63,658 bases of DNA, filler included, from Dirinaria sp. TL-2023a (GCA_051941275.1; 6 parts of 6 records of this genome joined end to end with filler, not necessarily neighbours in it); one strand, 5' to 3'. Numbered from the whole stretch's first letter, positions 1-46,189 are shown. Numbers and translations are program-made. Notes: a model not told the origin generated them from the sequence alone.

Positions 1-610
1 GATAATGGTGAAAAAGCCACCGACGGATCGATGGAGGCATTCTCTTATGAGACATTTGAATAGAATAGCCCTGCGTCAATACTTTTGGTTTTGAGGGATA
101 CGAACCAGACCGCCATCGGTTGACGACCTAAGATCTCGGACATACTATCCGAGGCAATGGATCCAACTACAGTCCCAAGACGATCAAGACTTTCCCTCAG
201 TCTTCTTTTTTTCCACTTTTCAGATCGCCCTTTAGGATCGCTTGACAATTTTCATAAGGCAACCACTCGTTTTAGCAGCTGGAGGCTTACCTTCATTTCG
301 ATATTGTTAATTCTCACCCGAGACACTCAATTCCTTCCTTGTCTCTTCCCACGCTACTCTCTCATCGCTGCTATTTTTACGCTTAATCCGATCATTCGCT
401 ACTAGCTCTAGGGTATAGTCCTCGAGGATCATTGGTAGCGCGGCCATGATTTCGGCCCTGCGCAAATCCGCTACGTTCTTAGCGAATGGAAGTCAGCATT
501 TGTATTCGATTCCTATAATGGATGATGATTACTCAGAAAGACAAGATATCGACGTAAGCTTCGTTGAGATATGTAATACATTCTTCATATTTTCTGCTAA
601 GTCATATATA

Positions 611-2524
611 TCACTGATGATCAGCTTTAATAATATCCGCTGCGCGCTCTGCCACTGCATAGACGCTGGTCTGTATATTTCCTCCCGGAACAGTTGGCAT
701 GATACTTGCATCTACAACCCTCAAGTTCGCCGTGCCATGCACCAGCAAGCGCTCGTTCACTACACCGCCCTGCTCCCTTGGCTTCATGGCGCAAGTGCAA
801 GCCGGATGGTTGTTGGATATGGCTGTTGCTCTCACATAGTCCTTCGCAGATGCTAGATCGTTGATATGACGAGCCGTGGGATGATTCCGCTTCCCGTCGG
901 GCTTGAGGAACGACGCTAGAGGTTCCGTAGCTGCCAGTTTCTCGAGGAATAAAACATAGTGCGCCATTATCTCGACGTCGAGAGGATGTGATAGATATTG
1001 AGGGTCGATCACTGGGGGTTTGGCTGCGTCTGAGGAGTTGATATGGACACTTCCTCGGGACAAAGGATGTAGCAGAGCTACACCAAGGCTCAAAAAGCTT
1101 CCTGGCATGAGATCTTGGAGGAAGTCTTTGGCGTCTGGATCGCTGTGGAGATTGACCTGCGCAGGGAACATGAAGAGGGAACCCGCTGAAGTGCTTTGGC
1201 TTGCCAAGACAGAGCGCACGAATTTCTCGTGCGATGCTCGGTCTTGGTCGTGGTCATCGGGGTTGAGTCCGCGCAAAATATCTTCTAGAGCTGTCGACTT
1301 CGATTTCGGACTCAGTGTATCCGCCAAAGGCAGGAACGCATAGGAACCTATCCCGCCTGCGCAGAGCGGACCCGCTCTCGCAGTTGTGTACATTTGCATT
1401 GCGCCTTGAGTGGCTTCAGGCTCATGCCGCATGAGAGAATCCCCGGTGAAAACCCCATCGATTACTTCGAAACTGATCCCCGTCATGAGATGGTCTTGAA
1501 GGTTCTCGCCCACATTTGGATTTTCAACTATGACGGGTATGTTATTGTCTTCAAGGATCTTTGGGTCGCCGATGCCTGAGAGCTCCAGGATCTTGGGAGA
1601 TTGAAAGGCACCCGCGGCAAGTATCACCTCTCTGCGGGTTGCGATGGTGTGAGTAGCCCCCTGCACACTGACCAGAACGCCTTTAGCCTTCGCTGGACCA
1701 GAAGCCGTAGCTTCGAGGACAATCTTCTGTACCACAGCATTTGTGACCACAGTCAAATTACTACGCCCTGCAGCCGCCGTTAGATATGAATTCGCAGCAT
1801 AGCTTCGGGTTTTTGTCTCCGGATCAACGCTGATGGGATTGCTGTAACCACCGACAGCCTCTCCGGAAAAAGGATCTGTCTGGAGACCGTGCTCCAAAGT
1901 CTTAAATGTCTGGACCCAGGCTTTCGACAAAGGATCTTGAACGACACCTTGAAACGAGGCTTGAATGGGCCCCGAGCTACCGCGAAAATCATTATCCACC
2001 CATTCGAGGCCCAAGTGCTCTTTTGTGTCAGCATCGGACGGCACGTTTAGGGTGTGAAATTTGCGATAGTATGGAATCATCGACTGCCAATTCCACCCAG
2101 CGTTCCCTAAACTCCCCCAGTGGTCGAGATCTGCTTTGGAAGGAGCTATGAAAGCTTCGGCATTGATTGCACTAGATCCACCAAGTACCTTTCCCTGAGG
2201 ATGTCGCACTTTCCGGTGGTTCAAGCTGTCCTGCATAAGGTACCGTTAGCACGCCATAGGATGGATACATGTGGAAGAGCGCATTTCCACCTGGGAAGCT
2301 GTCCTGAAATTCCAGTCGACCTCAGAGCCAAGAACGGCTGACCAGCCTGCGGGTATATTGATCCGAGGGTCCTCAATATGGTTGCCGCCAGCCTCAAGTA
2401 CCAGGACCCGGTAATCTCCAACTTCTGCAAGTCGGCATGCAACAACTAAGCCAGCTGTACCACCGCCTACAATGATATAGTCGTAATCGTCAGAGGGCCA
2501 TGTTGGGGACCGATTAAGATCCAT
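611..2524 (-). CDS. GMC (glucose-methanol-choline) oxidoreductase, 2 exons (2524-2291, 2230-611)
   Basis: N-terminal FAD motif DYIIVGGGTAG..VLEAGG, GKVLGGSSAIN, VGENLQDH, C-terminal NLRVVDAS...GNIQTSVYAVAERAAD; 60-bp GT..AG intron 2290-2231 with GCTAAC branch site joins the two ORFs in frame. Confidence 0.95.
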
Positions 2525-4317
2525 ATTGAAACTCCTGGGAGCTCGAGCTCTGCACTATGGGCAGCCTTTCTGATTCTCCGCGAATAGATCTTACGGAGGG
2601 GAGGAAATGAATAAACTACGAAATCAAGTCTGATGACTGGTCACTACGATACAAATCAGCTTAGCGAAGAGATGATGGTCCCTGCCACCGCGTCAATGTT
2701 CGAGGCGCAGGAAGAGGATCTTATTTCATGGAATATTTGGAAAAGCTTCCATATAAAGCAAGTTATCAACAAGCGTTGCGCGCGGTTTTTTACCCTGCCA
2801 CCGGATATTCGACTCTTGGTAATAAGGCAGCGGAGAAGTGACGTGCGTGAGGCTGCGCTGAATGTCGATCAATCCCGAGACTCTGCATCTTGATGGTATC
2901 AATTACCCCTTTGTGGCATTGTAGGCCTCAAGTCTGGGTAGTCAGAACGGAAGGATCGTGCATGGGGAGCATCGGGATCGCTGCGCTAAGTTAGGTTTCG
3001 CAGTAATCTCCATTTGGGGATGATTTTCCAAATCTGACCAAACCGGTGCCGATACCGTGATCCTTCGAGCACCCGACTTTCAAGTTCCAACGAGCGGATC
3101 CTGCGGAGGCGGTGTCCTTAGAAAGGGCAATGGCGTATCGAGATTTCTGAGTTCGATTCGTCGTATCCAATCAGGGCTTTTCTCCAACCACCGGGGCCAT
3201 TTGTTGCCAAGCATTCACCATAAAGGCACCTAAGGTAGACCGCTACAAGCAAACCGGTACTGAGCCCAGCTCTTAGTCTCCAATCAAGCATCATACTATT
3301 AGTGCTTGTTATAGGTGATACTAGATCTGGTGTTGTTTCAGAGATGCTCAGCCTTATTGCACTCAGCCGCATGGAACGACGCTATTAGGTAAAGCCCTTT
3401 CCAACGGCGACTGCGGCCTACTACAGACTCGTAAGGTAATGAGTGCGCACTTTCGAAGAGTCACATGTCGGCGTTATCGACTCCCAGACTCAGTCTTCGA
3501 AGGATCATAAAACTTCAGTCGAACCGGCATGCCTTGCATGAGCTGAAAGGTAGTTCCGTCATACCCCGCTGGTGATGAGGATTTCGGTCCGCAGACACGC
3601 TCTCGAAAAGGGTGGCAAGGTGAAGACGCGTTGATTGCGACTCCTACCTCTCTCCTGTAAGTTCGGCGCTCCAGGATTACCGGCTCCTTCTTGAATTTCC
3701 TTTCACATCCGCATCCTCGAAAGCCGTTACGGAATGTCCAAGGCGAGCGTGAGTAGCGCCGCTAGTGCGGCTGACTGAGAGCTACCTTACCTCACCAAGC
3801 GTCAGGGCCAATCGGGTCTAGTGTCTTCGGAGAGTGTCTACTAACGGTAGCTGTCTCTATCGGCGCTTAAGTTCTAGAACCTCCAGTCATCGGCATGGAC
3901 CTTTGTCGACTCAATTCTCCAATCATCATCGTGTATATCGTGCATCGCACCAGGCACACCGTCCAGGACTATGATCCAGACAATCCAATCTGCTGCCTAC
4001 GTATCGTCAATCTGTTGTTTTCGAAGCGTACTATGATAGCTGAGGGCGCCGTAACAGGGCTGAAAAAAATCATCGCTAAGTGCTTCTATTTTGATTCCGA
4101 GTCGTCTATCTTGCTCGTCACAGGCTGTGAACCAGCCACACCTGATGAATCCTTCTATTTCGATCAACCCTATGGAAATTTGGGCCGATAGGCCCAGTCG
4201 CCAGATGGTGATGGATCCTGTTCTAATGAAATATGTGACGGAATTCCCTTTTTGCACTCAACAACATCGACACGCAAGAAAATTGATCGAACAGCATACA
4301 GGCGGAGCTCAGGCGTC

Positions 4318-6343
4318 ATGGATCTCCTCGCAGAGGCCGCTAGTCCTCAAATTAAGGTATACGCGGCTATTGGAGCCGGTACAATCTCCTATCTGGCCAT
4401 TTTCAGTCGAGGGGAATGGGATGACAAGGCTCCTGTGCTCTTTGAAGGGATTATACTAATCTTTCTGTCTCTCTTCGCCGTGAATTGGGCTCACGTAAGC
4501 TTCCTTGAGGAGGCATGGAGCATTACATTTGCCATGGTGATGGCTTACGGGGCTTCTATCACTTTGCTTATGAGCATCTATCGTCTCTTTTTCCACAGAC
4601 TTCGAGGCTTCCCAGGCCCACTCCTTGCAGGTGTCTCAAAGCTATGGCACGTAAGTCAGGTTCTTGACTCAAAGAATCACCAGTTCCTGCTGCGTATGCA
4701 ACAGAGCTATGGCGACTTCGTACGCACAGGTTCGTTAGCTCAACTGAATTTTAAACGCTCAGCAGTGATGACTGTGTATTATGACAGGGCCTAACGAAGT
4801 GACAATCTTCAACCCGGATATTTTAGCAGCAATTGACGGTCCCGGTACCAAATGTACCAAACCAGCTTTCTACGATGTACTCCTACCAGAGACCTTGGTG
4901 AACACCACTCGAGAAAAAAAGGCTCATGACCAGAGACGCCGATTGTGGAACACTGCATTCGCCCCTGAGGGTAAGAAATACTTTTGGAACCGTTTGACCA
5001 GTCTGCTAATCACGATTTAAAGCTCTAAGCGGGTATAACAAGAAAATCATCAAGTACGCTGAAAGGTTGAGTGATCAGGTTGCGAAGTCACTTGGTAGAC
5101 CGGCCAATGCATCTGCATTATTCTACGAATTTAGCTTCGACCTGATGGGGGATTTTGCGTTTGCACGAGAGCCAAGTCCCAATGAGTCACTCAACAAGGA
5201 GTGGCATGCCGCTATCGAAGCACTGCAAACTGGAATGGGTCTTCTCGGCCCATTGAGTCCAGTTCCATGGTTGTTACACCTTGGACTGAGACTGACTTGG
5301 ATCCCAATCGTTCGCAATTGGAAAGAAATGATCTCTTTTTGCAAGCGCTGCATGACTGATCGAGTGAAACGAGACGCGATGGAGAAATCGGATGTAAATT
5401 TTGGCTTCTGATAGCTTGTACCCGTTTTACTAACCGTGTCACAGATATCATCTTGGCTGATCGATGGAACTAGTCGGCAAGACATCTCTCAGGACATGCA
5501 AATGCATTGGCTCCATGGAGATGCGATCACAATGGTGATTGCAGGAAGGTTAGTCTGACACTATCCCTGTCCCTTCCTTGCCGTCTTTGTCTAAACCCTC
5601 CCGTCTTATGGATTACTGGTTGAGCCTGACGACCGGCCGTGAAGTGATACTGTTGCGCCGATCTTAGTATTTCTATTCTACCACCTGGCTCTCCACCCCT
5701 CTGAGGCGAAACTCTTGCGCGAGGAACTGAGCAGTACTGGCTCTGAGCTCGATATCAGCTTACTCTCGAACCTTCCTCGACTGAACGCTTTCATAAACGA
5801 AACTTTGCGACTCTTCCCGACCACCCCAACAGGCGGCTACCGTGTGACACCTCCTGAAGGGTTACATGTTGGTGGTCAATTCCTCCCTGGAGGAGTGACT
5901 GTTGTTGCACCTGCTTACAATATTGGTCGACGTAAGTCCTGCACTTGAATCTAAAAACCATGAATCTGAATCTGTTATTTTTATAGAGTCGAGTTGCTTC
6001 GATCGACCAAACGACTTCGTCCCTGAACGATGGCTTAGCCGAACTCATATGGTCCGCAATAAGAAGGCTTTCGTTCCGTTCAAGCAAGGTTAGTCTGCCA
6101 CCCGATGCTACTGCTCTGCATGCAAGTGCTTCTGAATCACACTTAACAGGTCGCCACTCGTGTATCGGCAAGAAGTTGGCTATGGTGGAGTTAAGCGTTG
6201 TACTGGCACTCCTCGTCTCGAAATACGACATTCAGTTTCCGCCGGGTGAAGACGGTTCAGCAGTTATTCAAGACATGAAGGACTGTTTTACAGCGAAACC
6301 GGGTCAATTAACTCTAGTCTTTACTGAGATGCAGAAATCCTAG
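4318..6343 (+). CDS. Cytochrome P450 monooxygenase, about 7 exons, appears intact
   Basis: N-terminal TM segment then LRGFPGP; I-helix IAGS|DT; K-helix INETLR; FVPERW; heme motif PFKQG|RHSCIG; all GT..AG introns preserve frame; stop TAG 6341-6343. Confidence 0.93.
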
Positions 6344-6463
6344 CTTGTACATAGTAGCAGGGCCTATTTATTTAGTACCTATGGGGGACCCTTTGAGTTC
6401 TTCTAAGAATGTAATTCAATCGGCCACTGTTTACTCACAGCTTAAACATCATTACTAATTTCG

Positions 6464-7823
6464 CTAGGATTTATCCGCGCTATTGACAACCGAGTTGATC
6501 TCCCAACCTCGAGTCACTCTAATGTCGCCCGGGCTGATGCCTGCTTCTACGTCTTCAAGATCCCTTTTTCCTCCCTTACTAATGCAAGTATCCGACCCTA
6601 TGTTCATCCGAGATACACCCTCTGTAAGTGGAAGGCCATCGTCCTCGAGCATTTCAAACATCCTTCTATCGGCATCATACCCCTGCTTCACCGAGCTTAC
6701 AGGCTTCTTTGGCCAGTCGCTTGGCGAAGTGTTGCTACTTTTCGATGTTCGACGTGTCCAGGCGAAGGCTTTAGAATTGAACATTTCTTCGAACGCGGGC
6801 TTCAAGACCGGGATGCAAGCATTAACAATACCAAGACAAGGCTCGAGATCTGACCAGATTCCATCATCGACAGCGCTGTAGGAGAGGTCCGTTAGGGAGA
6901 GGTTATGAACAGACACAATACGCAAGATAGTCACAACGCAGATTCTGTAAACGACCGATATATTAGCACAAGATTGTCTTGTCTTGCAACTCTCCCGAGA
7001 GGCGAGGGTTAGAACTCACACTCCACCTATTCCAAAAACCCCCGATATGACGACTTTCTTCGATGTCGGCATCTGTAGTCTCCAGAGCATTGGCATGGGC
7101 ATGATGATGACCATGACGTCGAGAATAAGGTTGATAATCGAAACGCTTAGGTAGGCCGCCGGGAGGTTTACACAGCTACCGTTTACAATCGTCTTGTCCC
7201 AAGTGTAGGCAAAAGGGCTGCAGAGGAAGAACATGCGGATAATAGTGCTGAACCAGTATGCGATGACTAGACCCATACCGATATAAACGATCTGGCGAAA
7301 TCTCGGAACGCGGAAGATCTGAATGTAGAGATGCATGATGGACAATTTGATACAAGAATTTGTCGAAACCCAGAGAGGCTCTGCTGCGAAGTATGCCTAG
7401 GAAGATTAATACTCATACTGAATGCAGCTTTTCACCGATATCGGTTGACTCACCTTGCCTAAACTCAGGATTTGACCAGCTGTCAAGCTTCTCAGATGAT
7501 AACCGACTTTCCCCATCGTCACCGCTGTTCAGAGTATGAGTTTACCGGGCATATCTCAAGGTATTCATGGTGTATCACCTAAGATGAGAGTGATCGTCTC
7601 TGCGATCTCGAAGATCTTCACGATGTCAGCCAGGCATTGCAATCTCTAATGAACTACTTACCAAAGCCGCAACGATGAGATAGTCATTGAGCGACAGGGA
7701 CGCTCGCTTCAAGCGTCTTGCCCATAGTCGCAGGCAAGTCGCAACTGCGGCCAACGGAAGGAAGACTATGCATATTACGATGAGCTTGACTGCTCTTGGG
7801 CTTACACCTGTAGTGTCTTCCAT
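6464..7823 (-). CDS. PTH11-like / SAT4-family (fungal rhodopsin-like domain) integral membrane protein, multi-exon
   Basis: CLRLWARRLKR..LSLNDYLIVAAL, CSPFAYTWDKTI.NGSC, LPMLWRLQM-like PMPMLWRLQMPTSKK, WSDLEPCLGIVNACIP; no CFEM domain visible. Confidence 0.85.
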
Positions 7824-8660
7824 TGGATGCTCGAATGTGGCATATGGTCTGAAGAAGTTTGCGGGTCACAGAGTAACTACAGGATAATGAAGATTCAGGC
7901 AACCAGAAAGTCCATGTACCACCAATCTTTTACGATTGCAGATGTTTCGGAGAGGAGGATTCGTTTATCTCTGGCCATGTCAAAGAGCAGGTGACACCGA
8001 CTTAAAGTTTCGCCCCCGAGCACCGAGAATTAAACATGCACTACTATCACCAACCTTGGCTGAGCTGCATATTCCGGGAATCAGCTGAATAAAGGGTCCG
8101 CGCAGACACGGACGAAGGATCTGGTCAAACTGTCGATACCATGCAAGGTGGGCTTGAAAAATCCTCTCGATACTTTTTTGAGTGGTCTGGAGTGCGGCGG
8201 AGCAATTGCTCAATCCTTATGACGCTAATTCTCCCTAGATCTGCATGTCAGATTACTAGCGCTAAAGTTTATTCAGGACGAAGACTGCAATGCCACCCAT
8301 CACGCATTAAATGCCACAGCATTCATTGGTATCAATGATCGGACGAAAACAAATAGAAACGCGCGTTTGGGCCAGCACTCGGCTTGGTTCGCGCTGCGGC
8401 GACCGTCGGTGGATCTTGCTGTGCTAGCTGAGACTGCGCCCTTCAGGTTCGAGATTCAACGGTGTCCTTCTGAGGCAAAAAATAGCAAAGGCATGAGATT
8501 AAAAGCCTGTGGATAATGGGGATCATGGAGGAAAAGATTTGCACATGGTAATAGTCGCCAACCTCTATCTCGCTATGGCGCTAACCGCTAGGAACTGCTT
8601 CCCTCAAACATCGAAAGTCAAACCCTCGTGGATCAGAAATCAAATATTAAGTTGCCCTGG

Positions 8661-9564
8661 GATGATTCTTGGTCTCAAATCCGCCATCAACACCTGTCTC
8701 TACCATCTGCACACGCTATGGCTTTTTACCAAAAGCGACATCAAGTCGATTCTGGCACCGACCCTTGCGTTCGGCTTCCTCAGCGCTCAGTCCAGCGTCC
8801 TGCTCGTCTCTCCTTCCCTCAGACATGTCCAGCTGCTGAGTCGATTAGGAATGATATTTGCATGGGGCTGGATCAACCTCTTTCTTCTGTGCGTCAACAA
8901 TCAAAGAAAGCCTATCGCAATCGAAGAGGATAGGATCAACAAATCCTGGAGGCCACTCCCGGCGGGCCGCCTGACTAGCCCACAAGCTACGTATCTGATG
9001 CTTGCAGCGCTGCCGCTCGGATGGCTAGTCTCGTCCTGCACGGGAGGATTCTACCAGTTTTTCCTGCTGTTGCTGCTCAATGTCTGGTATAATGACCTTG
9101 GAGGAGGGGAGAACGTCATTTCCCGGAATCTGATCAATGCTATCGGCTTCACGTTGTACAACTCCGCGGCGCTGGATATATTGAGTGGTGGGAAGGCTAG
9201 GTCCTGGGAATCAGCAATCTCCGCCAAATGGCTGATTACTGTCGGTGCTATCGTTCTGGTTACCATACATGTCCAAGATCTACGGGACCAGGAGGGTGAC
9301 CGAGCTAGGAATCGAACTACGATGCCTCTAAAAATTGGAGATTGGCCTTGCAGACTGACGTTAACGGCCGCTATCACTGGCTCCTCTTTCTTCGCCTTGA
9401 GGTTCTGGCATTTTCCCGCCGTCGGTTGCGCGACTGTTGTCCTTCTGTGTTGCCTCTTGGCTCACCGGCTCTTGACCAAGAGATCGGCATGCGAAGACAG
9501 CCGGACTTTCAAGACCTGGAGTCTATGGCTGGTGTCTTTGTACGCTTTGCCGATAGTCGGCTAA
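8661..9564 (+). CDS. UbiA-superfamily membrane prenyltransferase / terpene cyclase (Fma-TC-like); intronless; start uncertain (ATG 8661, ORF open from 8509)
   Basis: YHLHTLWLFTKSDIK N-terminal signature, NQ..EEDRINKSWRPLPAGR (motif I), WYNDLGG, HVQDLRDQEGD (motif II), multiple hydrophobic helices. Confidence 0.85.
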
Positions 9565-10545
9565 AGACAGCGAGAAACATCATAGGGTCATGAATGAGCT
9601 CCAAAAATGGCAAAGGAGCAAGCAGCACAGAAGAAAGTGGTAACATGCAACAAGTAGCCAGTCTACTAGTGAGACGATGAGATCGGATTCTGGCAGAAGA
9701 CAGGAAATCTTAATAGTGGCTCGAGATCCGACTCAGGACCAAGGCGCTCCACCCAGAAATTAGGCTTTGAGTCTCAGCCAGCGTTGAAAGTTTATTCGAA
9801 TATGGAATCTCATCCGAACTGCTCAATGCCGGGAAACCCTCCTTTTACAAGCAGGTTCAGCTATCGAACGCGCTTGCAGGGTGCTTGTTTCAGAGACTTG
9901 GCGAGCACCAGTATCTTTCATTCCGGCCATCCGTGAAAAGACAAGTCGATGGAATGACTATGAATCCATTCTACCGATGAAGAGCTATTTTCCACCCGTC
10001 AAGCCGTCAAAATTGTAAAAAAATATCTTTGGTGGTAAAATGTAAAGCGGGAAGAAGAACACGGTGGAAGTAACAACCAACGTTAAGCAATCAGCATTTA
10101 TTTCAGATGGCACATAAAAAGAAGCAGCTACTGAACAATTTACAGAATAAATTATAAGAAAGAATAAAAATGAATCAAAAAATAATTGAAATTCGTAATC
10201 TTCCACACCTTGCTTCGATAGCGAAATATATCCCTCAAACCAAATCAGCATCTTCAAATACACCTTCTTGAAGCCCCGTCACTGAGAATAAGAGATTAGA
10301 AAATATCCGCACCTAGACCTGTCCAGAATCTAATTCCTATGCTCGTACCTACATCAACCCCAAAAAATCCACGAACCAAGGCCACCATACAAAGTAAATT
10401 CTCACTCTTGATTTGTATCCTATTCAATGTATCAAAAACCCCCTTTCAATCCAATACCGAACTCATTGTGCACATAAAGCAAAATTCCACCAAAAAAAAA
10501 AAAAGATGAAGCTGAGTTGTTGCTCCAAGAGCGCGCGGCAAAACA

Positions 10546-10645
10546 NNNNNNNNNNNNNNNNNNNNNNNNNNNNNNNNNNNNNNNNNNNNTTAATTAATTA
10601 ANNNNNNNNNNNNNNNNNNNNNNNNNNNNNNNNNNNNNNNNNNNN
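10546..10645. other. Artificial contig spacer N44-TTAATTAATTAA-N44
   Basis: Exact 100-bp linker with stop codons in all six frames. Confidence 0.98.
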
Positions 10646-11061
10646 CCTCCTCCACCATGCTCTCCTCGCACCTGACCGAAATCCACCGCTCCGAAGCCTC
10701 CTCGCGGGCCGCGCGCCAAGGCCTCATCGCCGCCTCAATGCGGCTTCCAGCAGGTACAATCCGGAGCAGCACGGGGCCCAGGATGCCCTTCGTCCCTCGC
10801 CTGACGCGCACTATAAAATCGCGGCCCTCCGTGGGACGGACAATTGAGGTGGGTTCGCAGGGTCTGGCGGCGGCTATGATCGCGTTGAATAAGGAGACCA
10901 CGATTAATCGGGTGGCGCATGATCGGATGAAGGGGCGGTTTTTTGAGAGGAAGGGGTTGAGGAAGAAGAGGTTGAAGGCGGAGCGGTGGAGGAAGAGGTT
11001 TAGGGTCGCGTTTGGGGCGACGGTGGATGCGATATTGAGGATGAAGAGGCAGGGGTGGTGA
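10646..11061 (+). CDS. MRP21: Mitochondrial ribosomal protein bS21m, 3' part (5' truncated by contig edge)
   Basis: C-terminal RFFERKGLRKKRLKAERWRKRF...MKRQGW typical of the fungal Ribosomal_S21 domain. Confidence 0.75.
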
Positions 11062-11300
11062 TTTGGGGAGGGGTTGGAAGCTTTTGGTCGCGCAAATAGA
11101 CGGGGATGGGGGGCACTACTTTATTTGTGTAGGCAATGAAGAGCCTACAGGTTTCTCCATCTAAAGGGCTCTATAAGCTTATGTCATTACATCGTTGAAA
11201 ATGTGCATGATTCGTGTCCGAAGAAGCCAGCTCGAAGTCCGTGTCTCTTTATCCTTTTTTCTTTTTTCTTTTTTCTTTCCAGTCCAAGGACCAAACACGT

Positions 11301-13223
11301 TCATCCAGCACCGAAGCCCGGCCAGCTCCGGCCCATCCAATCAACCTCCGTGTCCGTATGCGATGCACACCACGGCATCTCTCCCTCTCTATACTTCACA
11401 AGCGGCAGATCATACGGCATCCTCCAGCCCACCGTCACCTTAGAGCGCAGGACGGCCTCCTCCCCCTCACAATGCGGCATATCCCTCTTAAAAACAGGCA
11501 CCATCTCCGCCTCCTCGCCCCACAAGCCCGGCCACACGACGACTCCAATCTCATAGCTGCAAACCCTCACGTGCCGGTCTTTCGTCGCCGATCCCCAGGC
11601 CTGAGAGCTGAGGTTGGCAGAGGTCAGCATGGCCCAGTCGATCCTCGTCATTGCAGGGTCGCGGAAACGCGTGTACGTCTTGATATGAGGTGCCGCGCGG
11701 CGCCGGCCTGCTTCTTGGATCGCGTTTGTGCTTGCTGATCGGTTGTTGTTGTTGTTGTCGTCGTCGTCTTCGTTGTCCCCGGCCCAGTGGCAGAGCATGG
11801 GCCGGATATAGTCGAGTTGTTTACGCTGCGCAGACGATCGGGTTCGCATGTGGATCGAGCTGCCGGCGGAATAGCCGGTGACGGAACGTCGGATCTCGGA
11901 TGCGGTGGGGAAGATGATTGAGAAGCGAGGGGTTTCTGGTGATGGGCTGGAAGATTGAGAGGTTTGAGCTGCGAGAGGAGAGGTGGATGTGGTGGAAAGA
12001 GTTGGGAAGAAGAAGTCGCGGAGCCATTTCTCGCCAACGGAGGCTACGGAAGAAATTTGAATGACGATCTGAGCTGGTTCTTTGCCTTGAGAATCGGCGT
12101 CTTGACTTGAACCACCATCGTTTTTGTTAAGGTTCTTTGATTTGGAAGATGCTGTCCTATGAACTCCCGAGATGTTGCCTAGTATCCTCGCGAGACCAGG
12201 TAAACCCCATAGATGCTTTGTATTGTGTTGCGACACAATTTCCTGCTTCCTTGGTACGCTCGCAACCAAGGCTCCACGGACAGTACCAAAGTCGTACAGG
12301 CTGAGCTTGGTTGCTAGACTGGCCAGCCTGTTATAGACGCGAACATAAGCTAGTAAATCTTGTTTGAATCTCTTTCCGGATCCGAGAGGGAACAGTGATG
12401 CCGGTGATCCTGTTTCCGAGGCAGGTTCAGAAAGGAGTGGTAGTAAAGGGGATCGCCACAGTGCTTGAGTCATCATCCAGTCTCCGGGTATGAAATTCGC
12501 TGTGAGTATAACAATCCTGCGAGACATCAAACGGGGCAGGGCGTAGAAGAGATTGCATGATTACTCACTGGGCCATATCATCGCGTCTGAAGATGATGAT
12601 CATCTTGCTGTGATGGGTGCCATACATTTCCGGCATGTGCGCGGTAACCGCCTTGACATTACTGTACCTTTTCATGGCCGCCTCAATACCGATTCTATTG
12701 CTGTCCTCACTTTTCCACGAGCCGTGAACAAGCTTGACTTGGACAGCCTCGCGAACGTCTTGGTCGAATTGTCTCCTGTAGCCTTGCTTGTCAGAACCCA
12801 ACAGAGATAGTAGAAGCAAGGAATAGAATAGAGATCGGAGCAGCCAAGGATGTAGAGGCGGAGAACGAACATGATGAAATCTACATCGAAGAGATAGTTG
12901 AAGAGCCAGCATTCTGAGATGAGAGGGTCTCCTAGTAGATCCTTGAGAGTAAGGGTATCAGTGTTGCTTGCAGCAGGAAGAGATGGAATTCGATTGAGCT
13001 GGATGGGCGAAGAAACCGTGCTTGAGTTGATAAGAGCAGTGAATTCCCCGGTCAGAGCACTGGCTGCGTGTAGATTTGGGCTTGTGTGAGTTGAGATCCT
13101 TTTGCTCACAGGTGGGCTTATTGAGCGTTTGGACAGGCTGACGATATCATCGTCGGTGGTTGTGGAACCTGAATCGGCTCTCTGCCGTTTTCGAGGCCGT
13201 TCCCCTTCCGTTGTAGTCTCCAT
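11301..13223 (-). CDS. TDP1: Tyrosyl-DNA phosphodiesterase 1, multi-exon
   Basis: CWLFNYLFDVDF, first HKx motif YGTHHSKMII, second APHIKTY, WAMLTSANLSSQAWG, SYEIGV. Confidence 0.93.
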
Positions 13224-16200
13224 TGCGTCTGTCCAGGTACGGTCGACGCTAGAGATGGCTCAGGTAATAGGTGTTTTGACGGGTGTTGAGGGTGGACGCT
13301 GTAGGCGCGATCCCCAAGACCGGTAATCCCACATGGCCAGATCGTGATCTGATCAAGCCGTAATACCGTCACATATCTTCATTCGATCTGATCGTATCAC
13401 TACGTTGCATGATTGACTCGGGTAGCTCATCAGGAGTACGACTACTATCCTCAGCTCTCTACTCTTGGGCGGCTGACGATAGTCAAGCTTGGAAATGGCA
13501 ATATCACCAGAGGTTCGGATGATGATTGACAAGTACTGTAACTACGTCCATGGTTACTAGGGTATTATTGCTCGTGATTGACTCGCAACCCCTGAGACTC
13601 CCCTCTAGCAGGCAATACTTGAGCAACTGCGTCCTCAAATGTCTAATCAATATAGCACCTCACGGCCGATTAGGCGATCACCGCTCAAAAAATGTACAGA
13701 TCACGGAGATTTGAAACTTCATTTCAAGCCTGAAGGGGATTCTCCTTCGGCACTTGCTGTACTGCTATTGTAAAACCAGGCCAATTCAAGTATCCTCGGC
13801 GCCGAAACCTCCGAAGAGCACGGTGCTTGACCAATGGCGGATGAGACGAAAGTAATCAGCTTATAATCCTGCAAACCCCTGGATCCAGATCAAGCCGCCG
13901 ATACTCCAGTCACATTAATCGACCTGACAGGGATCCGTGACGCGCATTTTCGCATGCGATGATGCGACTGACTTTTAGGGGAGCAATTTAGGGAAAACGA
14001 CTACCTGATCTTAGCCACATCTAGGTAAAGTAGCTGCTTGGCTTGCAGAGACCACGTGGCAGGCCTGGCAAGCGGCGCCAAGCCACACCGGCACCAAAAA
14101 GCCGCGGACCCGTGGTTGCTCGGAGGAGACCCAGTCCGCGCAGCGAAGCTACCATATGGTACGGAGTACATGAGAAGTAGAAATCGAATTTGTCAGGTAA
14201 GGTGGGCTCCCTTACATGTACCTCAGCTGCGACAATAATATGGAGCCGCTGCCTACCAGCGGGGTACACAGAGGGTCAACCCGTTGCTGAACCGCCCATG
14301 ATCCTTACCTAGTAGGCAGCACACCTGGGATTGATGGCTGAGCCTTGCCTCCTGATCTCCAAAATGTTCGAAGGTGATACCCGAGGTGGTACTCTCGTCA
14401 GCCTGATAGCCTTACCTATTACATTGCGAAGCGGGCAGGCATCGCTCCCTTTTCAGATCACATGCCTGGCCCTGTTCTTCACGAATCTTAAAGCCGGTGG
14501 TGGCAAAAACCGGCAATTGTTACAAGCCCCAACGCTGATTGGCTCACCCTGCGGGCGGATCAGCTAGCAGGGAGTCGACCGCTTTTTATATTTGCTGCGC
14601 GCGGGCTCGCGGGATGCAAAGGACACGAGGCACCCTTGCAAGCTTGCAAGCTTGCACGGGCGCTGCATGACTCAAGCAGCGAGCTCTGCCTCAAGCTTCT
14701 CTGGGCGCACAATCGTAGATTCCTTAGGCCCGGACGCATCGGTTTTTGTAAAATACCTAGACAACAAGCCATGGATTTGGAAGGCTTGCCAAGCTTCAGG
14801 TCGCAGAATCGCGGCGGACCTTTCATTTGGCTCCAAGTCGGTCCTTATCACCAAAGTACATTAATAATGAGCCTTTGAGCCGACTAGCCTTGTGCTTTCG
14901 GTGTTAGAGTTCGAGACTAAGTCTCAGCTTGGTCATCCAAAGACAGCCTTGAAGGGCCAATATCTGGATATCGATCGCCACCGCTTGTATGAAAGCTGTT
15001 TCGAGATAGGCGCTTAAGTTAGATCAGCCTTCAGACAGTTGGGTGGCTTGTTCGACCACCGCAACGGACTGGCGGCAAACTCAGGGCTAAAAATCTCACT
15101 TACCTTACGTCCTTAGAATCCAATTCAAATCCGAGACGATGACGGCTGATGAAGAAAGCTGTCACCCCAAGCATCGGTGATTGCGGCTCCAGAGTACATT
15201 GGGCGTACCTGTTGTTATAGCCTTACGAAAGACCTGCAGCAGCTAGAGCGGAGTGAAGTCGATAGGATCGCTATATGTCAATCCGATATCGGTGTTCCAT
15301 GCAATGCAGTGATGACTGCATTACCCATCCATCTGGAGTCCGGCACAGACCGAAAGGTTTGATCCTTCTCACGTCAGCAATCCTAAAAGAGCGAAACGGT
15401 CGAAGGCGTTTGCGGCTCGAATCCCCAAACGATTCGAAATTCGTATTCCAGTATGATGGGTAGTGTCCAGTTGATCTAATTTCGCAGTTGTTCGCGGTAA
15501 CACGGAAGATGCGCGAACAGCTGCAATATCATGTACTGTACAGTACTGGATGCCTGTACTCCGTACATACAGAAAACTTGCCCGGGTTCCGTGCTCACGG
15601 ACCTGCTGCAGAATCTCGTGCGCATCTGCAGGAAAGCATCGGAATGATGCAGACTGGAAGCACGAGCAACCATGTACCATGAGTCCATGCGGCATGTCGC
15701 AGCCATGTGCTCTGCTGCTGCGTGCTGGTTCTCGCATTACAGCACTCGTACATACATATCCACGGGATTGTGGAACGTCGGCGTTTGATGAAACAGATGG
15801 ATCTTGGAGTCGGAGTCTTGGATGCATTATTAATATTGAATGTGAAATTGTCATTATTGTTCAGTACCTACATGTAAATTATGATTACCTGGTACAAGGT
15901 ACAGTATCTTACCTTATTATTATCCTCTTTGTTGGGCGACCCAACCTAGCATCTCCGTACAGAATGCCTGCATGTGGATTAGCGGGAGGCGATAATTCTC
16001 ATTCGATCACCCCGCGATCTCCACTTCCCTGCCGTCGCGTTCAACCGTTGGTCCCTGTCGAGAAAATCCTTTATGGCACCATTTAGAGCGATCATTATTA
16101 CTGTGTGGTCACACCGAGCACGTGTGCATCTTCGAGTTTTCGACAATCGCGCTGATCATGTCCTGGATGAGTATTTCCGAGTGCACTGCTTCGAGGGAAT

Positions 16201-39564: not shown

Positions 39565-42446
39565 CTACATGTTTGCAATCCACGAGTAAGCCTCCTGGAT
39601 CTGCCTCGAAGTCTTTGAGATCTGCGCAACACCGATGTCAGCTTCACGTGGATCATCTGCTGCTGACCGTGATGGACCTACATTCTGCTGGGTAAAGGCT
39701 TCGAAATGATTGCCTGGAATCTCCAGTACTTTGATGCTTTGCCCAACTAGCTTCTCCCATGCCGCGATGGCTTGTGACCGCGTTTGCTGATCGCTAAGCC
39801 AAGGGTACCGGACGCCGCAGAGCCCCTCGCTATCGAAGGTATCCCGGCTGCGCAGCATGACAACCTTTGCTACAATTTGACTGGATTGAGGCGGCCTGTA
39901 TTTCCCAAGGAGTGCAGCATTTGCCTGAAACTGCTTGGAAACACGTTCGCTCACAGCTTTGGTGGAATCTTTCGATGAGAGCGATCGGGAGACATGTGCA
40001 ATGACTGCATGAGGTAAAGGCTCGTGGTTGACTGGATAAGGCGAGTCGATTAGAATGATGCCTTCAACATCTTTGCCCTCCTCACGTAATTGATGGGCTA
40101 CCTGAAAGGCAACCACTCCTCCAAAGGAATAACCTGCAATAAGTCAAATAGATGCTAGCGTAGGTTCAAGGCCAATTTCCGAAAACTGCAGCAAGTGGAA
40201 AACCCTGAATTACTCACCGCCAAGGATGATAGACTTCTCTGTCGATGCACTGATGAGTGAAGCGTAATTCTTAGCCATGTCTACGAGAGTCGAAGGCTGA
40301 TCCTGGCTGTCGAAGAAGCCAGGGTTGTTGAAGCCATAGAGATCGCAAGCTGGATCCTCGACTTGAGAATACATATTGCTCATTCCACTTCCATCATGAA
40401 AAAGATAGAGTGAGGCGGTCTCTGATTTGCCCTTCGCGAGTAACAGCATAGGAGATTTTTTCTCCAGAGCTTTTCGAACTTGCACAAAGTGTGTCTCATC
40501 AAGACCCATTGATCTTCGATGCTGGTTTCGCGCCTTCGTGTCAGGGACATCGTCCTCGGCGACTCCGTCATTTGGTGTCTCTACACCGGAGGTGGGAGCG
40601 GTGGACATCATTGAGCCTGCGCTGGCGGACAATATAGCTCCTTCTAGGTCCGCAATGGTCTCACAATGCATCAATACATCGTCGTCGACATCTTGATCGG
40701 GAAAGGTCTTCTTGATTGCATTGACCAACTCCAAGATCATCAGCGAGTCCACACCAAGACCCTTGAGCTCGGTTGAAGCTTGCACTTTGTGCTCGGGAAT
40801 TTCGCAGACTTCGGTTATGATTCGACTGACCTTCGCTTTGACTTCTTGATGATTTACAGTTGCTTCACGGGGCGTTGCGGGACTCATTGACCCATCGACG
40901 GGCGTTGATGGAGCTGATGACACTGCGGAGGCTTCAGGTTTCCTTGACGGCTGAGGCTCTGGTACCTCGATTTTCCCAGATTTGCCGATGCTGCGCTCCA
41001 ATACAGATTTGAATGATGCAAATCGGAGCCTCTTAAAATGCATACCTTCAATAGCAGCAACCAATTTGCCATCCGAGTCTTGAGCATAAGCGTCGGCAAG
41101 CAGTGTGCCTTCGTTGTTGTCAAAAATACTGCAATAGACGGTAAATGTTTGGGTGAAATCAATTTCGCCGTACAAGCTCTGTATGGACTCAACTTTGCCG
41201 CAAATGCAAGCTTCACTTGTGCGTACACTCGTATTTGCAACAAAGCCTGCTGCGTGCAGCAGGGTATCGATGAAGACCGGCGAAGTTATCCCTGTCACCA
41301 TATCCGCGTATACAGGAACTCGAAAACTTCCGTAACCTTCACCACTGGACTCTGATACGCTAAAAGATAACAACGATTGGTATTCCTCCGAGTAGTCAAC
41401 GACTCGAGAGAAGATATTCTGGTAGAGCATCTTCGTCTGAAAGTTGTTTAAATTAACGCCACCACCGGCCAATAGATGAGCCTTTTGTCGCTTGACAAGG
41501 GCGCCTTTTCGGATCCAGCCACCCTTCACATTCGAGGTCGTCTCTGCGGAGATTTTGCCTGAACAATGTACCGTTTCAGACCGCTCTCCGTAGGCTTGAG
41601 AGAGAACATTGAAGTGGAGGTCGGTGGTATCAGGGGCCTTCTGCAGGATGACGTGGAGCGCTTGCTGCTCGTTTGCAACATCGTAGACCAATGGATGAGC
41701 AAATACCATCTCTCGGACAACGTATACCGATTCTCCATAGATTTGTTGAGCACTTTGCGCGGCTTCCACAACCAGCTCATGGAAGACAGACGCCGGACAC
41801 ATGGGTGTCTGACTCACAGAATGACCAACGATGTATTTAGCTATTTTCGAAAGATGGGTCTCAAAGCAGAAAGTACTTGAGCTGGACTTTGATTTTACTA
41901 TGTCCGGTAGTAGTATGAAACCAGTCTTCGATTCGGGCATCGAAGTATCATCCGAGGCCGTGAACGACGAGATCTCTTGATAAGGCACGCAGGCTTCTGA
42001 AATGGACATTGGATGCCCAGGCAGATCCACCATTATCGCATGACTGCCATCAAAAACTTTTCGCCACAAAATACCATCCTTCAGAGGATATATTTGGCGT
42101 AGTGAAGCGCTAAGACTTGACCATGCATCACGGTCCTTGAATAGACTCGGTAGGTAACTGCAAGTGTCCATCGACAAGGTGGCTCGTAGCATTGGGAGAG
42201 TGATAGGATGCGGGCCCATTTCCAAAAACAGAGCCCGCTCCATTGACCTTTCCTCCTGCAAATTCTGAATGGACTCCACAAAACGAACCGACTGTCTCGC
42301 ATGGGCAGCAAAATAATCAGAGTCAAGATCTTTCAAGCTCATGACCCTACCGTACACGTTGGACGCAATAGGGATCGTGGGCTCGGAAAAATTGACAGAT
42401 TTTCCTAATTCTGCTAATGGCTCAATCAGCGGATCCATAGCGGCTG
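39565..42446 (-). CDS. Non-reducing iterative type I PKS, 3' half (AT end-PT-ACP-TE); SAT-KS lost at contig edge
   Basis: AT end (HARQSVRF, FLEMGPHP), PT (GHSV..PMCPAS; DTLLHAAGFVAN), ACP LGVDSLM, TE (LFHDGSG, G|YSFGG, ILIDSP, IPGNHF); no KR, ER or MT domain. Confidence 0.92.
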
Positions 42447-42546
42447 NNNNNNNNNNNNNNNNNNNNNNNNNNNNNNNNNNNNNNNNNNNNTTAATTAATT
42501 AANNNNNNNNNNNNNNNNNNNNNNNNNNNNNNNNNNNNNNNNNNNN
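42447..42546. other. Artificial contig spacer
   Basis: Same linker. Confidence 0.98.
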
Positions 42547-43007
42547 CTCTCTCCCAGCCCGGCCCCCAAATCCGGATATCTCCGTTGTTGTCCCATGAGC
42601 AGGTTGTTGGTTTTTTCGTACCCCATCCACTTAAGTCCTTGTGACCGACTGTGCATGTAGGTAAAGCAGGTGCACGCCGATGGCGAAGGTCTCGCTCGCT
42701 ACCTTAGGCATTTTGCCGCCTGGTGGCCTGGGTGGGCCGGCTTGGGGGGGAGAAGGAGCTGAAAATTAGCAATACAAGGAAAGGTACTCGGGAATAGGTA
42801 ATCCACGTACACTGTTCCGGAGGAAGGCAAACCTGAGTACATAGACGAAAACGAGTATCGAGAGAGCATCAAGCGGCTCAGGTGATCACGTCTAGCATCG
42901 AACTGGAGGTCATGCCGTCCCATTAGAATCATATCTGTGGCGTTTGATCACCACATGTCGAGCTCAGATCAATGGGTGCGACCCTATGTGTCTCGCGAAA
43001 TTGAATC

Positions 43008-46000
43008 TCACAACTTCCTACTTGCCAAATCTTTCACCACGTAGACTTGTCCGAATAGATCCGTCACAGTCACGAACACATTCAATGCCCCTATGAGCCT
43101 GGTATCAATGTCTGGGTCCCTCTCCAATTGCTGCATGGCTCTCTCAATCCCCTTTCGCTCCCAATCAGCCAGCTCCATCAGTTGTTCCTTCATTCTGTCT
43201 CCCTCCACTATGCTTCTGGAACCAGAGCTGTTCTCGTTGGTGGCGCCGGCAACCTCAGAGCTTGCAGTCACTGGGCTCCAATCTTCGTTGGCGGCTTGGT
43301 GGAACTCCGAGAAATTCACACAATTGAGATTTCCCTCGGCAATGTCTCGCTTCAGACTACCAAGGTCGTTGTACAATCGACACATCCTCGCCAGATTGCC
43401 GCATAAATCTTCCGCTACGTAGCGCTGTCGTAATGTTCGTAGCAGTGGTGGGGAGCCTCCGGCACTTGCGAGAGCTAGGTAGAGCGCGAAGGAGTAAGGA
43501 CAGGATGTGTGCACGGCTGCGGTGTTGTAAAGCCAGGCGCGGAATGATGTTGCTGCTGCTGAGCTTTGTTGTATGAGAGGCGTGCCTATGGATTGGGTTG
43601 CCGCTGCTGCTTGCTTTTGAAGGAACAAGCTCCTATTGAGCTGGGTCTGCGTAAGATGAGCGTGAAGAAACGCTTTGAGCTCGATATGTATATGATGGAG
43701 GGAAGGCTTGGAGATGCAAGCCGCTTTGGCAATTGCTGTGATGTGGTGTATGAAAAGCCGAATGCTTTCAGAGAGCGATACAGAGGAGGCAAGTAGGGTG
43801 TTTTTTTCAGTGCTATGCACGTTTTGAGGAGCTGGAACAGCGTCTGGGGTAGACTGAGAATCTCTCAACGACTTAGAGCGAGAATTCAGGTCCTGGATCC
43901 GATCATTGATGCGAATATCATGATCTGCACAATCGGATTGGAAGAGAGCGTGAGTGCCAACATTCAGATCCTCTGTTTCATTCCAATGATCAACGCTTTT
44001 AAAAAGATCTTCGATCATCTCTCGCACTGTGGAAACGTCATCGTTTTCTCCGGCATCGAGAGCCATCTCCATAAGTTCATCTGCTTGGAAATTTAGCACA
44101 GATACGCGCATCATATCCAACAACAGTCTCGCAGACATGTTATAACCATTCGTGTTGTTCGCCAGAGCCCACAAGACTGGAATCCATGTGAAGTATTTAT
44201 CCTTGGACATCCCAGCGCGACAGAATGCCGCTCGCCGCACCTCATGCAGCATGGGAAGAAAAAGTTGGCCTTCTGTCCATGAAGCAAGTACGAGCCAGCG
44301 AGGCTGCGATGCCAACAGCGGAAGCTTTTGAAACACATCAGCGAACTTAGCCATTTCGCTATAGTTGATGGTGAGAAGAGTCATTATGCGTTGGCCGTGC
44401 AAATGGGGATGTTCAAGCGGACTCAGAGCGGCAAGAATGTAGGCTTTCGAAATGTTTTGCACCCCATACAGTACTTTTTCAACCCAGAGATACTCAGGTT
44501 TACTGGCCTGACTATGGGCTTTGAGATAGTTGCGACCGCGTAACAAAGCTGAGTGAGTCTGCTGTTTGAAGGATGAGGCTATAGGTAGGCCAGCCAGCTC
44601 TACCAAGGCCAGTATGGCGTACGCTGTCTCCTCTCGAGGCCCCTTCGACCCCCAAGAGCCGTCGCTATTTTGTGTGTGGACTATCCGCAGTAAACACCGA
44701 AAAGCTACTACAATTACCTGGTCGCGGAGCAGCTCCTCGCTTACTGGAGCTAGCTCAAATGCTTCCCAGCATCGAAGCAGTTTTATAAATGCTTGAGCAA
44801 CAAGCATCATTGAGTAATACTCTGATACATTCTATTCAAACCGGATTAGCCTTGTCAACTATAATAGGCTGGGCGATCGCAGAACCTACCCACTTGTCTT
44901 TGACAGGCCCGCACGCATTGAACCACTTTGAAGCTAGGTATTTGGAAACTTTTTCGATAGCCGAGACAGCTCCAGGATCTTGCTGGAGATCCAGTAGCAA
45001 AGCCAACAGGAGGCTGCAATTGGCACTCAGACTTCCACTAGATTCATTTCTATACGTCTCGAAGTGGGTCGCGGTCTCGAATTGCTCTCTCATTTGGCGT
45101 GACAGACCTGGTTTGCCCAGGAGGCTGAGGACTATCGAGGCATTTGCGCTGTCATCTACGTCTGGCTGAATGCCTGGACCTGGATGAAATCGTTAGTGTA
45201 TAACTGACAGAGTAAAGAGGATGCATACTAAACCCGACGAGGCCACCTTCTGGTATCCACTTATCGAAACTCTCAAGAATCAGGTGAGCGTTGGGGTCCT
45301 GTTCAATACAACCAGCTTTGAGCAATATAGAGGCAACCTGTTGGAGATGTTAAATAAAAATTAAGTGTTTCAATCAGGCACATACCCAGATCAGCTCGAA
45401 ATTCGTCGATGGATAAGCACTCGGTACTTCACCCGATCCATTGCCAGCTCCGTTCGAAAGCGTCAAGCGTAGATAGGCTTCTGCAGAGCCATCCCATTCT
45501 TTGCACCGCATCAGAAAAGCTGCTGTAGCGGATGGAGATCCCATAAGACTTCCATTGACTAAGCAATCACGCAAAGTATCGAAAGAGAAGCGCATGTCTC
45601 CATACAAGGCTTCAACAGAGTGCAACAGAGTTGAAGGCACTTTATCGAGCTGCTGCCCTACGAGCACTCTGGAGAGTCTACTGTCCCTCCTGAGAAAAAG
45701 CTCCCGTTTGCCAGGGAACGCGAATACGGCTCCCTCTGTCTCGAGAAGTTCAAGTAACGCCGGAACAAGGATCTCGAAGCCAACACTGTAGCCTGAAAGA
45801 CGCCATGGGCCTCGTAGGCTCTCTGACATATATAAGATTCCCCGACTCCAGCGATCATTTGCTTCATCTTGGAGTCGGATGAGTTGGAGCGGGTTATTGA
45901 CATGTTGCTTGATGGCGAACAAGGCCGCTAACGACGACAGAATTGTTCCAGCTGCGTCCTCTGGATCCCTTTGCGGAGGCCAATGCCAGCCGCCATCGGC

Positions 46001-46189
46001 ACTTTGAGAGTCGAGAAGGGAGCGAAAGCTGGACACAAAGAGCCATTGTCTGGATCCATTGTCGGAAGGTTTGGAGATGCATGAAACCCAGGCAGTATCG
46101 TAGATACTGCAGGTCATAGAACCCAAGCCATATCCCTGCTCGAGTTCCAGTGCCAGTGGCCTAAGGACATCGACAGCTTCTGTGCACAT
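43008..46189 (-). CDS. Bifunctional diterpene synthase (copalyl-diphosphate synthase/kaurene synthase-like), multi-exon; start approximate
   Basis: GSMTCSIYDTAWV, QSADGGW, VGFEIL, LLHSVEA, SPSATAA, VPSAYP; class II PDVDDSA near 45140-45165; QNSDGSWG..EETAYA, LWVEKVLY; class I QADELME and RLYNDLGSLKRD..EGNLNCVNF. Confidence 0.92.

Follow-up and report, generated by a model that had tools for sequence, protein, structure and literature searches.

We examined a window of 63,658 nucleotides, filler included, from the genome of the lichen-forming ascomycete Dirinaria sp. TL-2023a (GCA_051941275.1), and within it the interval 611-9564, which a first-pass annotation had proposed to be a compact sesquiterpenoid gene cluster built on a UbiA-type membrane cyclase. 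Pfam searches were run on stop-to-stop open reading frames (ORFs) of the window, whose DNA is fungal in character with short GT-AG introns, and the gene models were checked for introns. The interval holds four intact genes in two divergent pairs: a GMC flavin oxidoreductase (-) beside a cytochrome P450 (P450; +), and a Pth11-like seven-transmembrane (7TM) protein (-) beside the UbiA-type protein (+) (Table 1). All four reading frames are open; the GMC, P450, and 7TM genes contain GT-AG introns, and the UbiA gene is a single exon. Because the Pfam domains and the open, spliced models agree, the earlier description of four intact genes within 9 kb stands, as does the statement, checked by Pfam on the window ORFs, that no housekeeping gene lies among them; the next gene is Tdp1.

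The UbiA gene is the proposed core of the locus. Its product scored 70.7 bits with the Pfam UbiA family (gathering cut-off 34.2), over profile positions 4-250 of 250, and an alternative start at M11 (position 8575) coincides with the start of the closest homologue, P0001 (82% identity). Lichen-forming fungi, among them Ikaeria, Endocarpon, Usnea, cf. Caloplaca, and Ramalina, are the source of the nearest homologues of both the UbiA and the 7TM proteins among the matches listed, the Ikaeria UbiA relative having 51% identity. Among proteins of solved structure, the best sequence match is the digeranylgeranylglyceryl phosphate (DGGGP) synthase 6m31 (E 3.5e-4), the Atlas matches are generic 'UbiA prenyltransferase' clusters only, and no characterised cyclase (Fma-TC, EriG, Tps1A) appears among the matches listed (38 proteins; 120 of 225). 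The first acidic motif reads N119-Q-R-K-P-I-A-I-E-E-D129-x2-N132-K133-x2-R136-P, and the second, Q244-D245-L-R-D248-Q-E-G-D252, fits QDxxDxxxD exactly. In a 16-member family alignment, in which the region of motif I is two residues shorter in the basidiomycete members, N119, Q120, E128, D129, N132, K133, and R136 are invariant and Q244, D245, D248, G251, and D252 nearly so. The patterns NQRxPxxIxEDxxNKPWR and QDxxDxxxD recur in 20/23 and 22/23, respectively, of the groups of related loci described below.

The available text of a study of Antrodia cinnamomea reports that QDXXDXXXD sets UbiA-type terpene synthases (Tps1A/2A, Fma-TC, EriG) apart from prenyltransferases, whose first motif is NDXXDXXXD and whose second is DXXXD, and that Asp-to-Ala changes in these motifs of Tps1A abolish bisabolene formation (PMC9835599). 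The second motif of the window UbiA is of the QDxxDxxxD type and not the prenyltransferase DXXXD. The motif and the family alignment therefore support the assignment of this protein to the Fma-TC-like UbiA-type terpene cyclases, in line with the first-pass annotation, which had called it a non-canonical cyclase of this type. We also weighed the possibility that it is an aromatic or other prenyltransferase, so that its target would be a non-terpene acceptor and the product of the locus a meroterpenoid, perhaps with a polyketide from the polyketide synthase (PKS)-like genes 30 kb away. Pfam itself gives only the general UbiA prenyltransferase family, the database names of relatives are '4-hydroxybenzoate polyprenyltransferase' and 'UbiA prenyltransferase', and the PKS-like gene at 39.5-42.4 kb has acyltransferase (AT), dehydratase/product-template (DH/PT), acyl carrier protein (ACP), and thioesterase (TE) domains. 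We nevertheless consider this account quite improbable: the prenyltransferase first motif NDxxDxxxD is not present in the window UbiA, whose sequence there is NQRKPIAIEED, the N being followed by Q and not by D, whereas the cyclase-type second motif is; four housekeeping genes (Tdp1, RGS/DEP, CHD1, and ABCE1) stand between the UbiA and PKS-like genes; and none of 298 ORFs scanned beside the relatives matched a ketosynthase.

We note that the database gene call for this gene, P0002 (8575-9294, 240 aa), ends ...LRDQE inside motif II, while the ORF and all homologues run approximately 90 residues further, and the public annotation is therefore probably truncated.

To collect related loci, the window UbiA was aligned with five close homologues and metagenome contigs were scanned with the result, which returned 57 loci with flanks of up to 10 kb on each side; these fell into 23 groups at an identity of at least 90% in UbiA. 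By tblastn, within 10 kb, a P450 homologue lies near the related UbiA gene at 28/57 loci (15/23 groups), with best-segment identities of 27-51%, and a 7TM homologue at 27/57 loci (12/23 groups); a homologue of the window GMC was found at 0/57 loci and in 0/23 groups. A Pfam scan of the 298 ORFs mentioned above (at least 130 aa, from 21 loci standing for 20/23 groups) confirmed the tblastn matches and added Fung_rhodopsin, the family of the 7TM protein, at L036 and L051, which brings the 7TM gene to 14/23 groups, nearly as many as the 15/23 of the P450. Of the nine groups left without Fung_rhodopsin, three (L012, L027, L052) have complete or almost complete flanks, and the other six are on contigs that do not exceed 9.4 kb. 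All three genes occur together in 11 groups, and in 12 of the 14 groups with a 7TM gene it lies no more than about 3.5 kb from UbiA (P ~1e-4 under a uniform spread over 10 kb). Gene order and orientation vary: at L038 the 7TM gene is divergent, which is the window arrangement, at L004 it is upstream and shares the strand of UbiA, and at L008, L023, and L048 it is downstream. Pairwise identity matrices across 12 clusters co-vary, most strongly for P450 and 7TM (r=0.64; 0/5000 permutations as high), followed by UbiA and P450 (r=0.57; 17/5000) and by UbiA and 7TM (r=0.33; 78/5000).

Because the trio of cyclase, P450, and 7TM recurs and its pairwise identities co-vary, we take these three genes to be the conserved unit, and comparison across the groups supports this well. 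What is new here is that the conserved unit includes the Pth11-like 7TM gene and excludes the GMC gene. Synteny in relatives, which the first-pass annotation had proposed as a check on the quartet, is seen for the trio and not for the GMC; the first-pass annotation had named the family of the Pth11/SAT4-like gene correctly and had given it no role, although it stands beside UbiA in so many groups. The P450, by comparison, had rightly been taken for the partner of the cyclase, given the recurrence of a P450 of the same family and its fit to the published logic of cyclase plus P450. We also observed a larger recurrent version of the unit at L008, L010, L023, L030, L036, and L048, in which UbiA, P450, and Fung_rhodopsin are joined by Abhydrolase_6 and methyltransferase genes, neither of which is in the window locus.

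These comparisons bear on whether the four genes could be chance neighbours with no common pathway. In favour of chance, Pezizomycotina carry several copies each of P450, GMC, and Pth11-like genes, and 611-9564 has neither a transcription factor nor a transporter to mark it as a cluster. As an internal control for the recurrence of the trio, the 298 ORFs contained no major facilitator superfamily (MFS) transporter and no Zn-cluster factor, families that are more abundant in fungal genomes. The presence of the trio in 11 groups in differing order, with co-varying identities, argues against chance, and we regard coincidence as very improbable. The presence of a 7TM gene in 14/23 groups has a binomial P of ~1e-12 on a background that we estimate at no more than about 5% per 20 kb, from 43-105 G-protein-coupled receptor (GPCR) genes per genome as given in the available text of a review (PMC13308352); this value overstates the case, as the 23 groups share ancestry and are not independent.

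Cytochromes P450 are recognised by the haem-binding FxxGxxxCxG, the I-helix (A/G)Gx(D/E)T, and ExxR. The spliced model of the window P450, in which Pfam p450 was matched on 5643-6343(+), exons 5 and 6-7, has a membrane anchor at its N-terminus and carries AGSDT in the I-helix, ETLR, and FKQGRHSCIG with the haem cysteine.

All four genes are transcribed in lichen material. RNA contigs 90-99% identical to the window, from three runs (X1, X2, X3) of one lichen metatranscriptome sample, were aligned with 400-10000; contigs fell on all four genes, and the intergenic bins had no depth. The GMC gene is covered from 562 to 2704, with the intron at 2230-2289 spliced out in contigs of X2 and X3, and the P450 exons are covered, with the introns at 5932-5986 and 6089-6149 removed in one X1 contig, so that these two genes are certainly both transcribed and spliced. 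The contigs in the 7TM gene (7146-7390) and in the UbiA gene (8669-8869) each lie within a single exon. Past the UbiA stop, a 162-nt X1 contig matches 9607-9660, preceded by 47 unmatched bases and followed by a non-canonical GT..GC joint to 9746; it may represent a variant of the 3' untranslated region, a small transcript of the neighbourhood, or a contig that derives from a relative.

The GMC gene is intact as well. On ORF 611-2554(-), Pfam gave GMC_oxred_N (6.6e-35), GMC_oxred_C (2.2e-34), and an N-terminal FAD (flavin adenine dinucleotide) fold; exon 1 holds the FAD-binding motif GGGTAG (GxGxxG type), and no signal peptide is obvious in the 617-aa protein. Solved GMC enzymes match it in abundance (52 at E <= 1e-10), the best being FAD-glucose dehydrogenase 4ynt (2.3e-64), aryl-alcohol oxidases, and patulin synthase. 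Judged by synteny, the gene is a lineage-specific addition or a bystander to the conserved unit. The first-pass annotation had placed the GMC in the pathway as the oxidase that follows the P450, and synteny does not support this: the chemistry is reasonable, and the step rests on adjacency, on the 1.8-kb divergent intergenic region that the GMC shares with the P450, and on the parallel with EriM of the erinacine pathway. We regard participation of the GMC as possible and somewhat doubtful.

The corresponding alternative is that the cyclase and the P450 cooperate without the GMC, whether or not the 7TM protein joins them, and that the GMC is an unrelated neighbour with a substrate of its own, such as an aryl or sugar alcohol. 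In favour of this alternative are the lack of a GMC homologue at any related locus, the glucose dehydrogenase and aryl-alcohol oxidases among the closest solved relatives, and the RNA contigs, the longest of which fall on the GMC alone (1.2-1.4 kb versus 0.16-0.35 kb on the other genes), though contigs cannot rank expression. Set against it, the GMC and P450 genes are a divergent pair whose 1.8-kb spacer contains no gene, and other flavin oxidases occur in related clusters, namely an FAD monooxygenase at L002 and L004 and a FAD_binding_4 plus BBE oxidase at L031, L034/L037, and L055; short-chain dehydrogenases, alpha/beta hydrolases, and methyltransferases are also found at related loci. The distant locus L057, with P450, UbiA, and GMC in a row, and the precedent of EriM speak in the same direction. 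Taken together, we place this alternative on the unlikely side. At L057 (1543-5102), the UbiA relative (25% identity) is flanked by ORFs for a P450 and for GMC_oxred_N, the three sharing a strand and being apparently intron-free; it keeps EDSLNKPWRP and QDLRDLDGD, and the enzyme trio is the same as that of the window. The organism of L057 may not be a fungus.

The 7TM gene required the most careful modelling. Pfam matched Fung_rhodopsin (PF20684) on 6464-7396(-) at 3.2e-32 (112 bits). The gene at first appeared to be frameshifted between exon 1 and the exon encoding GKVGYH, and this was ruled out by comparison with L004: a 37-nt micro-exon at 7615-7579, which encodes most of helix 2, closes the frame, and a micro-exon equal in size and phase is present at L004 (~7880-7916) despite a protein identity of approximately 39%. 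Gene callers would probably overlook this micro-exon. The spliced 375-aa protein aligns end to end, micro-exon included, with P0133, P0134, and P0135. We used P0133 as the orthologue stand-in for structure. In its model, residues 11-280 have a predicted local distance difference test (pLDDT) score above 90; the model shows seven long and two short helices and a disordered tail. The top VIA-align match of this model is the fungal GPCR Ste2 (Z 18.4, root-mean-square deviation 4.3, 253 residues), followed by designed GPCR-like folds, many GPCRs, and an adiponectin receptor; Foldseek against the PDB returned nothing at E <= 0.001 and only weak GPCR rows. By way of this stand-in, the window 7TM protein fits a GPCR-like seven-helix fold. 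A complex prediction for the window UbiA (40-339) with P0133 (1-300) gave no verdict (score 0.00).

In family and predicted fold the protein thus resembles the Pth11-like class XIV fungal GPCRs, which share PF20684 and a GPCR-like fold (seen here on P0133). Pth11 itself carries a CFEM domain; Pfam found none in any 7TM exon scanned. The ligands of the class XIV Pth11-like receptors are stated to be unknown in the available text of the review, which mentions no link of the class to terpene clusters (PMC13308352). Our own literature search, mostly of titles and abstracts and with few subscription journals covered, found no publication tying PF20684, PTH11, or SAT4 proteins to terpene clusters. 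The 7TM genes linked to UbiA elsewhere can be ranked against exon 4 of the window gene: those of L048, L030/L043, L007/L005, and L002/L003 score 99-107 bits, the L010 group 91 bits, L008 86 bits, and the remaining linked loci 27-78 bits. In a family with 11,929 representatives at E <= 1e-3, the 7TM genes of the five groups at 91-107 bits would rank in the best 150, and L008 would rank just below. In a FastTree tree of the 7TM core (165 rows, 125 columns), the UbiA-linked genes need 8 changes versus 10.8 with shuffled labels (0/500 as low); 150 family representatives stand in this tree without context information, and the test is hence a weak one. Atlas matches of the 7TM orthologue are generic Fung_rhodopsin clusters only.

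We incline, with some caution, to read the locus as a small terpenoid cluster, most likely sesquiterpenoid, whose core is an intramembrane UbiA-type cyclase, and its most likely function would be to make an oxidised sesquiterpenoid. In such a pathway, primary metabolism would supply farnesyl diphosphate, which the cyclase would ionise at its two acidic motifs and cyclise to a hydrocarbon or alcohol scaffold. The P450, co-inherited and anchored in the endoplasmic reticulum, would then oxidise the scaffold, and the GMC, if it participates, would turn the resulting alcohol into an aldehyde or ketone. Our best guess for the 7TM protein is that it may bind a lipophilic product or intermediate in the membrane, for sensing and regulation or for hand-over, rather than act as an enzyme.

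Besides the absence of the GMC gene from related loci, a number of points weigh against this reading. The spacing of motif I is N-x9-D, as opposed to the published NXXX(G/A)XXXD (PMC9835599), and cyclase membership rests on motifs and on an alignment of uncharacterised proteins. The synteny set is drawn from loci other than the nearest UbiA relatives (P0001 and the Ikaeria protein). Within the locus, the two divergent intergenic regions share 4 10-mers, versus 2.5 expected and a maximum of 9 in 200 shuffles, so that promoter words common to both are not in excess; the RNA contigs cannot bear on co-regulation of the four genes; and the left end of the cluster falls at the start of the window, where the sequence is cut. 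For the 7TM gene, the closer homologues are those of cf. Caloplaca, Endocarpon, and Usnea, at 63-73% identity over exon 4 and 46-61% over longer stretches, whereas the UbiA-linked 7TM genes have approximately 29-40% over the aligned parts and, clustered as they are in the tree, do not form one clade. On sequence comparison, the window 7TM gene may or may not be the orthologue of the UbiA-linked genes.

A bolder proposal, which we consider rather unlikely, is that a Pth11-like subfamily is a dedicated, co-inherited part of UbiA-type cyclase clusters and binds the terpenoid of its own cluster. It might do so as a cognate receptor, for pathway feedback or as a signal to the symbiotic partner, or as a factor for membrane hand-over or a second cyclisation, in the manner of PaxA and AscI. 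The available text on PaxA/IdtA and AscI describes cluster-encoded helical membrane proteins that went unnoticed for a long time before they were shown to be cyclases that form ether rings on oxidised terpenoids (PMC12038925). By analogy these could be a model for an enzymatic 7TM role, but the structural matches of P0133 are receptors and not enzymes.

The locus can be compared with several known systems. In the fumagillin pathway of Aspergillus fumigatus, which resembles the window in its pairing of UbiA-type and P450 genes, a membrane UbiA-like cyclase (Fma-TC) adjoins a P450 (Fma-P450) that oxidises its sesquiterpene, according to the available text of the HEx paper (PMC5895447); Fma-TC also shares QDxxDxxxD with the window UbiA (PMC9835599), a likeness of motif. 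The PKS, acyltransferase, dioxygenase, and other genes of the fumagillin cluster are not present at 611-9564. The tps1/tps2 clusters of Antrodia cinnamomea likewise combine UbiA-type cyclases (Tps1A and Tps2A, which make alpha-bisabolene, motif II being essential in Tps1A) with the P450 Tps1H and the methyltransferase Tps1D, and the minimal set reported in the text available is Tps1A plus P450 plus methyltransferase. They differ from the window in that they are basidiomycete, have a shorter motif I spacing, and include a methyltransferase, in place of which the window has the GMC and 7TM genes. The methyltransferases at the related loci L023, L048, L030, and L010 recall the methyl-ester step of Tps1D as described for Antrodia. 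Finally, EriG/EriM of the erinacine (cyathane) pathway offer a parallel to the proposed GMC step, in that an FAD-dependent oxidase converts an allyl alcohol to the aldehyde (PMC8463280). This is a diterpene pathway from geranylgeranyl diphosphate (GGPP), EriM is unclustered, and the likeness to the GMC is that of an FAD oxidase only, the class of flavoenzyme being unstated in the available text (PMC8463280).

The closest general precedent is the HEx survey, whose available text gives a count of 326 UbiA-like terpene clusters across 538 genomes; of the 13 that were expressed, 5 gave oxidised sesquiterpenoids (PMC5895447). The expressed clusters had been chosen for a proximal P450, and each time that UbiA-type cyclases were expressed they gave new sesquiterpenoid scaffolds (PMC5895447). 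The UTC clusters of this survey (TC1 of Trichoderma virens, TC3 of Botrytis cinerea, TC9 of Schizophyllum commune) resemble the window in pairing a cryptic UbiA-like cyclase with a proximal P450 and in yielding oxidised sesquiterpenoids, though none is from a lichen fungus; the comparison of gene content covers the proximal P450. UbiA-like cyclase clusters with a proximal P450 are thus an established class, of which the window locus is a new, uncharacterised member. The first-pass annotation had matched the combination of genes to no characterised cluster; this holds for the lichen locus itself, whereas the kind of cluster had already been described. In titles and abstracts, with few subscription journals covered, we found no publication on a UbiA-type terpene cluster in a lichen fungus.

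Lichen fungi have a rich, cryptic secondary metabolism and are difficult both to culture and to modify genetically, and a compact locus of four intact genes transcribed in thallus material is therefore a practical target for heterologous expression. If the link of the 7TM gene to these clusters is functional, the locus would offer a route to ligands for Pth11-like receptors. If the bolder proposal were true, it would provide the first ligand class and the first metabolic context for a family of ~12,000 representative clusters without a known ligand.

Table 1. Features of the window, with the genes and intergenic regions of 611-9564 first and neighbouring features after them.
Feature	Position	Strand	Details
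UbiA-type terpene cyclase candidate	8545..9564	+	Single exon, 339 aa; Pfam UbiA (PF01040) E 1.6e-19 on ORF 8503-9564
Cytochrome P450	4318..6343	+	7 exons, 550 aa: 4318-4729, 4788-4970, 5023-5393, 5445-5548, 5645-5931, 5987-6088, 6150-6343
Pth11-like / Fung_rhodopsin 7TM	6464..7823	-	5 exons, 375 aa: 7823-7662, 7615-7579, 7524-7454, 7396-7020, 6944-6464
GMC flavin oxidoreductase	611..2524	-	617 aa; exon 1 2524-2290, intron 2289-2230, exon 2 2229-611, stop 613-611
Intergenic, divergent, between GMC and P450 start codons	2525..4317	.	1.8 kb, from gene models
Intergenic, divergent, between 7TM and UbiA start codons	7824..8544	.	721 bp, from gene models
Tyrosyl-DNA phosphodiesterase (Tdp1), housekeeping	11301..13259	-	Pfam Tyr-DNA_phospho 2e-94 plus N-terminal piece
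Thioesterase	39565-40143	-	Pfam
PKS-like gene, AT, DH/PT, ACP	40210-42444	-	Pfam
FAD_binding_4 oxidase	47975-48850	+	Pfam
Transferase/TRI-like acyltransferase	50308-51807	+	Pfam

Because Tdp1 is the next recognisable gene, the right edge of any cluster would lie before 11.3 kb. Between the UbiA gene and Tdp1 (9565-11300), the ORFs 9673-9936, 9985-10278, and 11140-11556 matched no Pfam family, and 88 bases of this region are N. Beyond Tdp1, Pfam identified the RGS/DEP, CHD1, and ABCE1 genes.

A separate secondary-metabolite neighbourhood lies at 39565-52000 (Table 1). Among its scanned ORFs, Pfam found no ketosynthase, and a 607-aa ORF at 43008-44831(-) had no family.

We also observed paired runs of N, each of 44 bases and 12 bases apart, that recur every ~10.6 kb: one pair is at 10546-10589 and 10602-10645, and others are near 21.2, 31.8, 42.4, and 53.1 kb. 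They look like masks or joins and not biology. The UbiA gene and Tdp1 have one such pair between them, and the PKS-like gene contains another.

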